DNA of 64,000 nucleotides from Nocardioides sp. (lineage in GTDB: Bacteria; Actinomycetota; Actinomycetes; Propionibacteriales; Nocardioidaceae), in the NCBI RefSeq assembly GCF_047607185.1, contig NZ_JASGDQ010000086.1:28478-92477 (forward strand). Direction: 5' to 3'. How positions within the stretch are numbered: the stretch's first letter is position 1; every line of letters begins with the position of its first letter. Shown here in pieces: positions 8,209-11,496 of the stretch. Under the pieces are notes generated by a model. The model saw only the letters and a list, made by a program, of their open reading frames with translations. It was not told the origin of the DNA and did no database searches. The translations under genes and the position numbers were made by a program.

Positions 8209-9248
8209 CTCTGACTGCCCGCGCCTACGGCGCTCCCGCCCCTGCCGCGCCGCTGGTGCCGCTCTCGATCGAGCGCCGTGAGTTGCGGCCCCACGACGTG
8301 CTGATCGAGATCGAGTACGCCGGCATCTGCCACTCCGACATCCACACCGTGCGCGGCGAGTGGGGCGAGCAGCCCTATCCGGTGGTGCCGGGCCACGAGA
8401 TCGCCGGCGTCGTGGCCGAGGTCGGTGCCGAGGTGACGAGGTACGTCGTGGGCGACCGGGTCGGCGTCGGCTGCATGGTCGACTCCTGCCGCGAGTGCGC
8501 GCCCTGCCTGGCCGGCCAGCAGCAGTACTGCGAGAACGGCTTCACCGGCACCTACGCGAACACCGACAAGCGCGGCGAGGTCACCCAGGGCGGCTACTCC
8601 ACCCACATCGTGGTCACCGAGGACTTCGTGCTGCGGATCCCCGACGGCCTCGGGCTCGACGTGGCCGCGCCGCTGCTGTGCGCCGGCATCACGACGTACT
8701 CCCCGTTGCGGCACTGGAGCGCCGGGCCCGGCAAGCGGGTCGCCATCGTCGGCCTCGGCGGCCTGGGCCATATGGGCGTCAAGCTCGCCCATGCGATGGG
8801 CGCCGAGGTGACGGTGCTGTCGCAGTCGTTGAAGAAGCGCGAGGACGGCCTGCGGCTCGGCGCCGACGACTACCACGCCACCGCCGACCCGGAGACGTTC
8901 AAGGAGCTGCGCCGGTCCTTCGACCTGATCGTCAACACCGTCAGCGCGCAGATCCCGCTCGACGCCTACCTCGCCCTGCTGAAGTGGGAGGGCACGCTGG
9001 TCAGCGTCGGCCTGCCGCCGGAGCCGCTCTCCCTGCGGGCCGGGGCGCTGATCAGCAGGCGCCGCTCCTTCGCCGGGTCCAATATCGGCGGCATCGCCGA
9101 GACCCAGGAGATGCTGGACTTCTGCGCCGAGCACGGCATCGGTGCGGAGATCGAGGTCATCCCCGGCAGCTACGTCAACGAAGCCTACGAACGGGTGCTC
9201 GCCTCCGACGTGCGCTACCGCTTCGTCATCGACGTGGCCACCATCTGA
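8205..9248 (+). CDS. Zn-dependent NAD(P) alcohol dehydrogenase (cinnamyl/YahK-like)
   Basis: GICHSD, GHE, CxxCxxCx7C structural Zn site, GLGGLG. GTG start overlaps the thioredoxin stop (GTGA). Confidence 0.94.
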
Positions 9249-9258
9249 GCGCCTCCGC

Positions 9259-9287
9259 TTGACGTCATATTCGAACAGGCGTACGAT
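9259..9287 (+). promoter_or_regulatory. SigA-type promoter overlapped by an actinobacterial LexA (SOS) box
   Basis: TTGACG (9259-64), 17-nt spacer, TACGAT (9282-87). TCGAACAGGCGTACGA (9271-9286) is one mismatch from TCGAAC-N4-GTTCGA. Confidence 0.85.
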
Positions 9288-9436
9288 CGTCGAAGGTGGT
9301 TCATCTGAGGTGGCGGGACCTGCGGGCCCGTCGAAAGACGTCCGTCAGTCGCGAGGGTAGGTAATAGTCCGGGTGCCGGGCCTCCAGGAGCGGCGCAGAG
9401 GTGTTGTTGCTGCGTGCTTGGAGGAGGTGTCTGCTC

Positions 9437-10693
9437 GTGTCCCATCCGATCTTGGCGTGTGCCGAGGCGGTGGCTGCGGCGCTAGGGAACGTGGCAGACG
9501 TGAACCCGACCTTCATGAGCACCAGTGAGAAGGCCACCGCGCTGACCCGGCTGGCGGCACTCAAGTCCCAGATGACCGAGCTCGAGCTGCGGGTCCTCGC
9601 CGCCGCGGCCGATGTCGCCGAGACCACCGCCGCCCGTGACGTGGGCGTGTGGCTGCACGCCCACACCCACAGCCGGCCCGAGGACGCCCGGGCCGACCTC
9701 GCCCTCGCGATAGCCCTCGACCGCGACCACCACGCCGTAGCCGCCGCGATCCGCCAAGGCGCCTGCAACCCCGCCCAAGCGCGAGTGATCGTGGACTGCC
9801 TCGACGACCTGCCCGGCCAGGTCGACACCGAGACCCGCACCCACGCCGAGGAGGCACTGGTCGACTACGCGACCCGCTTCGACCCCCACCAGCTCCGCCG
9901 CCTGGGCCGCCATATCCTCGACGTCATCGCCCCCGAGGTCGCCGAGCAGGTCGAAGCCGACCGGCTCCAAGACGAAGAGGCCCACGCCCGCACCCGGACC
10001 CGGCTCACCCTCCGGCCCCTCGGCGACGGCACCACCCAGATCACCGGCCTACTCCCCGACCCCATCGCCCACCGACTCGCCACCTACCTCCACGCCTACA
10101 CCAACCCCCGCAAGGGATTCGGCCAGACCGGCGATCGAGCCGGCGAGACCGACCGGGCCGGCGAGAGTCACGCCGGTCGGCTGCCCTATCCCCGCCGACT
10201 CGGCCAGGCCTTCTGCCAACTCCTGGAGACACTCGACCCCACCCGACTCCCCCTCCACGGCGGCGACGCCACCACCGTCACCATCACCATCACCCTGGAC
10301 TCCCTACGCCACGAACTCGGCCACGGCGCCATCATCGGCGGCGACACGATCTCAGCGGCCGAGGTCCGCCGCCTGGCCTGCACCGCCAACATCATCCCCC
10401 TCGTGCTCGGCGGTCACAGCGAGATCCTCGACCTCGGCCGCGCCCGCCGCGTCTTCGACAAGGCCCAACGCAAAGCCCTCCTGCTCCGAGACCAGACCTG
10501 CCGAGCCGAGGACTGCACCATCCCCGGCACCTGGTGCGAAGCCCACCACTGGGTCCCGTGGGCCAAAGGTGGATCCACCGACCTGGCCAACGCTGTCCTG
10601 CTCTGCAACCACCATCATCACCGCGCCCACGACCACACCTACGACAAGACCCGACTGCCCAACGGCGATGTCAGATTCGCCAGACGCAGATAG
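9437..10693 (+). CDS. DUF222 / HNH endonuclease (13E12 repeat family-like)
   Basis: C-terminal CRAEDC..CEAHHWVPWAKGGSTDLANAVLLCNHHHHRAH HNH motif after a helical DUF222-type region; GAGGAGG RBS before GTG 9437. Confidence 0.9.
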   Translation: MSHPILACAEAVAAALGNVADVNPTFMSTSEKATALTRLAALKSQMTELELRVLAAAADVAETTAARDVGVWLHAHTHSRPEDARADLALAIALDRDHHAVAAAIRQGACNPAQARVIVDCLDDLPGQVDTETRTHAEEALVDYATRFDPHQLRRLGRHILDVIAPEVAEQVEADRLQDEEAHARTRTRLTLRPLGDGTTQITGLLPDPIAHRLATYLHAYTNPRKGFGQTGDRAGETDRAGESHAGRLPYPRRLGQAFCQLLETLDPTRLPLHGGDATTVTITITLDSLRHELGHGAIIGGDTISAAEVRRLACTANIIPLVLGGHSEILDLGRARRVFDKAQRKALLLRDQTCRAEDCTIPGTWCEAHHWVPWAKGGSTDLANAVLLCNHHHHRAHDHTYDKTRLPNGDVRFARRR

Positions 10694-10710
10694 GTCTCCT
10701 AGAATGGGCG

Positions 10711-10808
10711 GCGAACGGGAGTAGTCCCTCGACCGGGTGTCGACATACTGGCCAGCTCGCTGGCCCGGTGCCCGGGGCCACCTATGGGTGGCTGGACGAG
10801 ACGTTCGG
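10711..10808 (+). ncRNA. yybP-ykoY manganese riboswitch
   Basis: P1 CGAACG/CGTTCG enclosing GGGAGTAG, GTCGACATAC and GACGAGAC blocks characteristic of the class; TAGAAT -10 at 10700-10705; lies directly upstream of a TMEM165/GDT1 gene. Confidence 0.82.
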
Positions 10809-10887: not shown

Positions 10888-11496
10888 ATGATCGACATCG
10901 CAGTCCTGCTGACTGCCTTCGCCCTCGTCTTCGTGGCCGAGCTGCCCGACAAGACGGCGATCGCCAGCCTGGTGCTCGGCACCCGGTTCCCGTGGCGCTG
11001 GGTCTTCGCCGGCATCGCCGCCGCGTTCCTGGTCCACGTCCTGGTCGCCATCGCCGCCGGGCAACTGCTCACGCTGCTGCCGGAGCGCGCCGTCGAGATC
11101 GTGGTCGCAGTGCTGTTCCTCCTCGGCGCGGTGCTGATCTGGCGGGAGGGCATGGAGGACCCGGACGACGAGGAGGCGGCCGAGGAGGCGGCCGTGGCCG
11201 ACGTACCGGACAATGCCGGCTTCTGGAAGGTCGCCGGCCTCGGCTTCGGCGTCATCTTCGTCGCCGAGTGGGGCGACCTGACCCAGATCATGACCGCCAA
11301 CCTCGCCGCGAAGTACGACGACCCGCTCTCCGTCGGCATCGGCGCCACCCTGGGGCTGTGGGGCGTGGGGCTCATCGCCATCCTGTTCGGCAAGACGCTG
11401 CTGCGGGTGCTGCCGATGAAGTGGATCACCCGGGTCGCCGCGGTGGGGCTGGTCGGGCTGAGCATCTGGAGCATCTACCGGGTCATCAGCGGCTGA
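10888..11496 (+). CDS. TMEM165/GDT1 (UPF0016) Mn2+/Ca2+ exporter
   Basis: Two copies of the ExGDKT-type signature (AELPDKT, AEWGDLTQ) in a ~6-TM protein. Confidence 0.92.
   Translation: MIDIAVLLTAFALVFVAELPDKTAIASLVLGTRFPWRWVFAGIAAAFLVHVLVAIAAGQLLTLLPERAVEIVVAVLFLLGAVLIWREGMEDPDDEEAAEEAAVADVPDNAGFWKVAGLGFGVIFVAEWGDLTQIMTANLAAKYDDPLSVGIGATLGLWGVGLIAILFGKTLLRVLPMKWITRVAAVGLVGLSIWSIYRVISG

Follow-up and report, generated by a model that had tools for sequence, protein, structure and literature searches.

A conserved leader RNA that probably restrains translation of SOS-linked DUF222-HNH nuclease genes in Nocardioides

The 5′ leader of a DUF222-HNH endonuclease gene in Nocardioides sp. appears to hold a conserved cis-acting RNA that controls translation of this SOS-inducible, multi-copy nuclease gene, a reading to which we assign a probability of about 0.7. 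Judging from comparison of its copies, the element would most likely serve as a translational brake behind a LexA-box promoter, limiting the output of a risky enzyme.

The window, that is, the whole 64,000-nucleotide stretch of DNA that was analysed, carries the gene and its predicted control region downstream of an alcohol dehydrogenase-like gene that ends at 9248. The parts are as follows.

9259–9287, + strand: predicted sigma-70-type promoter, TTGACG-N17-TACGAT (9 of 12 consensus matches; 0.1 expected in shuffles)
9271–9286, strand not assigned: LexA-like SOS box TCGAAC-AGGC-GTACGA, matching 11 of 12 positions of the actinobacterial consensus TCGAAC-N4-GTTCGA and overlapping the −10 hexamer
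9294–9436, + strand: predicted 5′ untranslated leader of the HNH gene, as deduced from the promoter and the GTG at 9437
9343–9429, + strand: conserved RNA element, from its core through the Shine-Dalgarno (SD) sequence
9437–10693, + strand: DUF222-HNH endonuclease gene of the 13E12-repeat type, 418 aa, GTG start (Pfam DUF222, 1.3e-30; HNH, 2e-4)

The GTG at 9437 was set as the start by the N-termini of homologues, which read M/V-(S/T)-H-P-(I/V)-L. A second in-frame GTG occurs at 9401, 10 nt past a conserved AGGAG, and its use would give an HNH protein longer by 12 residues; it is probably unused, since the homologous sequences lack such an extension. From the promoter at 9259–9287, transcription is predicted to start near 9293–9295, which makes a leader of about 143 nt plausible. 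A search of public RNA and DNA sequencing runs turned up none that contained the stretch. No promoter-like site was found within 9288–9436, a span that includes the RNA core. Past the gene, a partial match to the yybP-ykoY Mn2+ riboswitch lies at 10717–10793 (28.9 bits, below the gathering score of 45), behind a promoter-like site at 10677–10705 whose −35 hexamer falls in the last codons of the HNH gene, and ahead of a GDT1/UPF0016 cation transporter gene (10888–11496). This is probably a divergent Mn2+ riboswitch.

LexA-like boxes matching at least 10 of 12 positions precede 53 of 109 family copies, whereas none of 104 control windows placed inside coding sequence contains one. In M. tuberculosis, the 13E12 (DUF222-HNH) genes are bound and controlled by LexA (PMC3381160). 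For the gene in the window, the box match together with this family-wide enrichment suggests LexA control. Promoters at the equivalent place in related loci have a −10 of the TAGGNT type (TAGGCT, TAGGGT or TAGGAT), and the TTGAC-N17-TACGAT promoter sequence is preserved in the HNH loci of group (b). Some 60–90 nt ahead of the HNH start, three other DUF222-HNH loci that have no leader motif (L003, L005 and L041) carry TGTCGGTG-N8-TAnnnT, the DNA-damage promoter motif of RecA_NDp/PafBC type from mycobacteria.

A protein-relative search recovered 43 homologous DUF222-HNH loci, nearly all from Nocardioides, at 43–64% protein identity. In 25 of them, a block of about 50 nt equivalent to 9344–9395 is 79–94% identical, although the proteins at these loci are just 48–64% identical, and the block always lies 40–100 nt upstream of the start codon. 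With a degenerate DNA pattern drawn from this block, we gathered at least 118 genome-contig loci and 46 metagenome stretches; with an earlier, looser pattern, 3 of 120 matches were real and the remainder were mostly chance. With chance matches taken out, distinct copies number at least 117 in genome contigs and 38 in metagenomes, many of them related paralogues, so that these counts do not represent independent events. Nearly all of the copies listed come from Nocardioides or Nocardioidaceae, and among the matches listed the RNA core was found in these taxa only. No copy was found in phage records, plasmids or viral contigs.

We aligned 104 distinct copies from core to SD with MAFFT (alignment A1) and derived a covariance model from them (R1). 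The model matches the window at 9343–9429 with 58.1 bits (E = 7.7e-12), has no second significant match in the 64 kb, and does not match the HNH leaders of groups (b) and (c). A third leader type, seen at seven further loci (L021, L024–L028 and L030), stands behind a near-identical LexA-box promoter (TTGAC..TATTCGAACAGGTGTACGAT) and carries a different conserved sequence, GAGGUGAUAGUGAUGCUGGGGCCUCGG; it has no covariance-model match, and its SD is not sequestered. Rfam 15 returned no match, whether to LOOT RNA (RF03000) or to any other family, for the leader in the window (E up to 10) or for four typical family members (E up to 1). The literature that we searched describes LexA control of 13E12 genes and no leader RNA for the mycobacterial copies. 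This RNA of about 85 nt has no counterpart in Rfam or in the papers searched.

The leader comprises the following parts, all on the + strand.

9329–9340: hairpin CGUC-GAAA-GACG, present in this copy only, in a 5′ domain that cannot be aligned across subfamilies
9348–9356: SD mimic GUCGCGAGG (family GUYGCGAGGG), the 5′ strands of the alternative helices Pa (9348–9352) and Pb (9353–9355)
9357–9366: purine- and A/U-rich bulge, GUAGGUAAUA in the window and G-UGA-GUAAUA in most copies, near-invariant in its A1 columns
9367–9381: hairpin Pc, with GUCCGG (9367–9372) and CCGGGC (9376–9381) paired around a GUG loop; it covaries
9381–9386: sequestor (anti-SD) CCUCCA, with CCUCC invariant in A1, pairing with the SD
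9386–9390: SD-like AGGAG internal loop between the anti-SD helix and P4, near-invariant in A1 columns 51–55
9393–9398: 5′ strand of P4, GCGCAG, pairing with 9410–9415 and overlapping the 3′ strand of Pa (9390–9394)
9410–9415: 3′ strand of P4, CUGCGU, seen in folds of the window and in the family pairing
9419–9428: SD region UGGAGGAGGU, with a mean unpaired probability of 0.15 in the window

The sequence-only reading had proposed a search for covariation among homologous leaders, and in the 104 distinct copies helices Pc, P4 and P5 do covary. Three pairs of Pc have changed on both sides, and 93.7% of its cells are paired; its sequence is highly variable, the 95 distinct cores having 78 different hairpin sequences, and in 87 of these cores it folds into a closed hairpin. 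At pair 58–121 of P4 the copies read A-U (82), G-C (9) or G-U (6). P5, a hairpin nested within P4 in most copies, shows covariation at all seven of its pairs; the copy in the window is without P5 and has an 11-nt loop instead. The CCUCC:GGAGG helix, with 91% of its cells paired, does not vary in sequence, as is unavoidable for an SD helix, and across the P4 and anti-SD set 91–92% of cells are paired. None of 500 shuffles reached the covariation score, and shifting the partner column by 1–3 positions lowered pairing from about 90% to about 30–60%.

The alternative helices join 9348–9352 with 9390–9394 (Pa) and 9353–9355 with 9382–9384 (Pb). Among the 104 copies, 98% of cells in Pa are paired (U-A 87, U-G 14, C-G 2 and one C-A mismatch), with changes that are mostly one-sided, and Pb does not vary at all. 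Covariation cannot prove Pa, Pb or the anti-SD helix, since their sequences hardly vary; the invariance itself is partly circular for the several core bases that the collecting pattern fixes. G-U pairs are frequent (U-G in 63 of 104 copies at one Pc pair and in 69 of 104 in Pa), and the pairing therefore fits the + strand RNA only.

These comparisons separate the two domains that had been drawn by hand in the sequence-only reading. The strings on which that drawing relied are all in place: CGUC-GAAA-GACG at 9329–9340, ACCU at 9318–9321, AGGU at 9359–9362, CCUCCA at 9381–9386, GCGCAG at 9393–9398, CUGCGU at 9410–9415 and UGGAGG at 9419–9424. The 3′ domain, in which CCUCCA and GCGCAG pair with CUGCGU and the SD (9419–9428), is found again in over 100 copies, among which P4 shows compensatory changes. 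The 5′ domain (9314–9371) is not a conserved fold, and the region 5′ of 9343 differs between subfamilies. Its suggested closure by ACCU and AGGU would use conserved bulge bases and has no upstream partner in other copies, and the second GNRA loop placed within it drew no support from the comparison.

Comparison supports structure in the 3′ domain and part of the middle; thermodynamics gives no support to the description of the leader as highly structured. Against dinucleotide shuffles, folding of segments of the window gave z-scores of +0.66 (9294–9445), +1.31 (9249–9460), −0.36 (9343–9440), −0.88 (9376–9432) and −0.20 (9343–9400); as the leader folds no better than shuffled sequence, the claim of structure must rest on comparison with other copies. 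Minimum free energy (MFE) folds of the 104 full-length copies contain P4 in 81, the anti-SD:SD helix in 79, and Pa and Pb in none. Folded alone, as it would be during transcription, the core forms Pa in 82 of 104 copies and Pc in 89 of 104.

Folding also predicts that the ribosome-binding site is hidden. The mean unpaired probability of the SD is 0.15 in the window and does not exceed 0.04 in 11 of 14 leaders with the motif. Thirty control genes from the window have a median of 0.38 and a 10th percentile of 0.26; among seven HNH leaders of a different type, six reach about 0.5–0.8 and one 0.11. The earlier proposal of a translational brake that buries the SD is accordingly supported, by the conservation of the SD helix and the adjoining stem and by an SD predicted to be less accessible than in control genes. 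On the strength of the alignment, comparison establishes the predicted hiding of the ribosome-binding site in what we call the off state.

The 5′ half of the core is its most conserved part, though the full-length fold leaves it unused. Within it, the mimic GUYG-C-GAGG resembles the SD-proximal strand GUCGUCG-AGA-GGAGG, and both can pair with the same partner. Since the 3′ strand of Pa overlaps the 5′ strand of P4, and Pb uses the sequestor, the two folds are mutually exclusive. This layout of mimic, sequestor and SD suggests a two-state switch. After LexA-controlled transcription from 9259–9287, the mRNA would take its most stable, off fold, in which CCUCC (9381–9385) pairs with GGAGG of the SD (9420–9427), P4 extends the helix and, in most copies, P5 is nested within it. 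In the on fold, the mimic (9348–9356) would instead pair with the sequestor and the first bases of P4 through Pa and Pb, leaving the SD free. The mimic is transcribed first, and the on fold may thus form first and then give way to the off fold, which is more stable, if no factor keeps it in place; candidate triggers are a kinetic window in the nascent transcript, a protein, a small molecule, a standby ribosome or RNA processing. When forced, the on fold is less stable than the off fold by a median of 13.8 kcal/mol, so that it could matter only kinetically or transiently, or with a strong stabilising partner.

The 10-nt bulge, which reads UGAGUAAUAG in most copies, is paired in neither fold model. 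That it and the CAGGAG loop are near-invariant without a role in either fold is our main reason to suspect a bound factor, and hints that the bulge binds one. An upstream open reading frame ending at the conserved UAA/UGA-UAG of the bulge was considered and rejected, as it showed no consistent frame or start and several copies are without any in-frame start.

Downstream of the element, a DUF222-HNH homologue follows in 98 of the at least 117 genome copies, with the gene start 40–80 nt past the core in about 80. A gene of 333–343 aa encoding a DUF1016_N plus YhcG_C PD-(D/E)xK nuclease follows in nine copies, seven from genomes and two from metagenomes (L175, L177, L187, L191, L217, L241, L266, L384 and L403); in these, Pc is fully compensated as GCGCC/GGCGC, and P4 and P5 are present in versions of their own. 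The other 12 of the listed genome copies are five chance matches, four at contig ends, two before fragments of HNH pseudogenes and one degenerate locus, L202, in which neither nuclease gene is recognisable. All copies with enough downstream sequence, L202 excepted, are followed by a DUF222-HNH gene, a DUF1016 gene or a broken remnant. Many DUF222-HNH paralogues are without the RNA motif.

In related genomes, paralogue pairs from the same assembly share a unit of 1.3–1.55 kb at 73–99% identity, promoter and leader included. Where the upstream part is included, the unit begins about 205–260 nt ahead of the start codon, spans the box, the promoter and the leader, and ends a few bases beyond the stop codon; the pairs L014/L020, L007/L009, L006/L010 and L012/L013 exemplify a shared unit of 1.4–1.55 kb within one genome. 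An empty-site comparison through the neighbouring alcohol dehydrogenase gene, intended to define the insertion, found that 80 loci were not syntenic. The element travels, as seen in related genomes, in a promoter-leader-gene unit of 1.4–1.55 kb, and it also stands before DUF1016/YhcG nuclease genes.

How the leader acts may be read in other ways. It is possible, as a tentative proposal, that the leader is a riboswitch or a protein-responsive switch, in which Pa, Pb, Pc, the UGAGUAAUAG bulge and the CAGGAG loop form an aptamer and a DNA-damage-related ligand or host protein stabilises the on fold, so that the nuclease would be translated only if a second signal comes with SOS induction. The bases of the bulge and loop are near-invariant though the off fold has no need of them, the adjacent Pc keeps its structure and not its sequence, the mutually exclusive helices leave an unpaired GAC toehold as in riboswitch expression platforms, and one core serves two unrelated nuclease families. 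Set against this are the absence of any known ligand or protein, associated genes that give no metabolic clue, and an on fold that lies about 14 kcal/mol uphill; no tertiary contact or pseudoknot was found, and no known aptamer or riboswitch class in Rfam 15 matched. The more specific version, in which the mimic-bulge-hairpin core is a new aptamer for a DNA-damage-linked small molecule or host protein and provides a second checkpoint after LexA release, licensing translation of selfish and repair-type nucleases, is doubtful. That the two-fold arrangement has no part in regulation, and the 5′ half is instead a standby or tethering site for the ribosome, or the off helix a processing site for RNase III or RNase E/J, strikes us as improbable; either would set the translation rate or the half-life of the mRNA without an alternative fold. 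In its favour, every full-length MFE fold leaves the 5′ half unpaired (Pa and Pb in 0 of 104), this half carries SD-like GAGGG and AGGAG, and the off helices, stacked together, exceed 20 bp. A parallel exists in tisB and other SOS-controlled type I toxin mRNAs, which combine a standby site with 5′ processing. However, standby binding has no obvious need of near-invariance in 20 bases or of a covarying hairpin between the site and the sequestor.

Two further accounts place the function outside the control of translation. We give very little probability to conservation at the level of DNA, where the element might be the operator of a further repressor, a site for recombination or targeting of the repeat unit, or a hairpin in single-stranded DNA; what favours this is that the element sits within a repeated stretch of DNA and near a LexA box. 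The core lies 60–110 nt inside the unit rather than at its ends, each G-U pair would read as a C-A mismatch on the opposite strand, the element contains no promoter-like site, and the helices join the core to the SD, an arrangement that is sensible only in a transcript. The G-U pairs, being strand-specific, and the connection with the SD make a DNA-level role unlikely. Least credible of all is the speculation, raised in the sequence-only reading, that the leader RNA serves the DUF222-HNH protein as cofactor or guide, in a ribonucleoprotein of the IscB/HEARO kind. Position is all that favours it, a conserved and structured RNA lying immediately upstream of an HNH nuclease gene and moving with it. 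Neither HEARO nor any other Rfam family matched the RNA, which has no evident variable, single-stranded, guide-like segment and ends in the SD of the gene itself, as is typical of cis regulation. In the protein, Pfam finds DUF222 and HNH only, with RuvC and PLMP absent. An AlphaFold2 model of the HNH protein is all-helical over residues 1–187 (pLDDT about 90) and poorly predicted over residues 198–338; this model of the DUF222-HNH fold, confident only in part, matched nothing significantly in the PDB and gave no link to the RNA-guided nucleases solved there, and structural and sequence comparison yielded nothing significant outside the HNH motif. The Foldseek search gave a local similarity to ParB/Noc over about 75 residues, which is weak and not significant (E = 0.36). 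The core also precedes DUF1016 PD-(D/E)xK nuclease genes, and many DUF222-HNH paralogues do without it. A core common to HNH and DUF1016/YhcG nucleases points to a portable cis-regulatory leader rather than an HNH-specific RNA cofactor.

In actinobacteria, with M. tuberculosis among them, few genes are induced by the SOS response as consistently as those of the DUF222-HNH (13E12) family. An RNA leader that gates translation of the nuclease would add a post-transcriptional layer to the SOS regulon, and such a brake would help to explain how cells tolerate many copies of a nuclease gene. If the invariant bulge does bind a factor, it would represent a new class of sensor linked to DNA damage; were the aptamer reading true, a riboswitch-like sensor would be wired into the actinobacterial SOS response. 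For experiments, the comparison provides a defined motif, about 85 nt long and represented by more than 150 copies. A theme so far familiar mainly from phage homing-endonuclease genes, in which nuclease cassettes bring with them a leader that hides the ribosome site, is here extended to bacterial chromosomes.

In the homing endonuclease genes of the phage T4 family (I-TevI, I-TevII, I-TevIII, seg and mob), leader hairpins sequester the ribosome-binding site, and relief comes from a late promoter inside the hairpin. The Nocardioides element would resemble these in pairing a selfish nuclease gene with its own promoter and an SD-burying leader hairpin, such that most transcripts might yield little protein. 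It differs in having no promoter-like site within (9288–9436), in being chromosomal and actinobacterial, in its place behind a LexA box and in its extra mimic-bulge-hairpin module, and it has no sequence similarity to the T4 hairpins. The type I toxin mRNAs tisB and dinQ encode small membrane peptides and are governed by antisense sRNA and 5′ processing; the likeness there would lie in LexA control of a potentially harmful product whose ribosome site is structurally hidden on the primary transcript. With translational riboswitch platforms, the element shares the layout of mimic, CCUCC sequestor and SD, the overlapping helices and a conserved bulged hairpin upstream. Unlike riboswitches, it matches no aptamer class in Rfam 15, and the genes downstream encode nucleases and not metabolic or transport functions. 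IscB omega-RNA and HEARO also consist of a structured RNA upstream of an HNH-containing nuclease in a mobile unit, but the present RNA matches no HEARO model in Rfam and overlaps the SD of the gene, the protein is without RuvC and PLMP domains, and the RNA stands before non-HNH nucleases as well.

The REP13E12 elements of M. tuberculosis, whose gene family is under LexA and RecA_NDp control (PMC3381160), differ in that a structured leader is undescribed for the mycobacterial copies in the literature searched. They have in common with the Nocardioides loci the DUF222-HNH architecture, a multi-copy unit of about 1.4–1.5 kb (seen here in related genomes) and SOS-box promoters, together with the RecA_NDp-like motif at some Nocardioides paralogues. 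By analogy, the closest counterparts of the leader itself would be the T4 homing-endonuclease hairpins, with type I toxin mRNAs and riboswitch platforms as more distant relatives in design.
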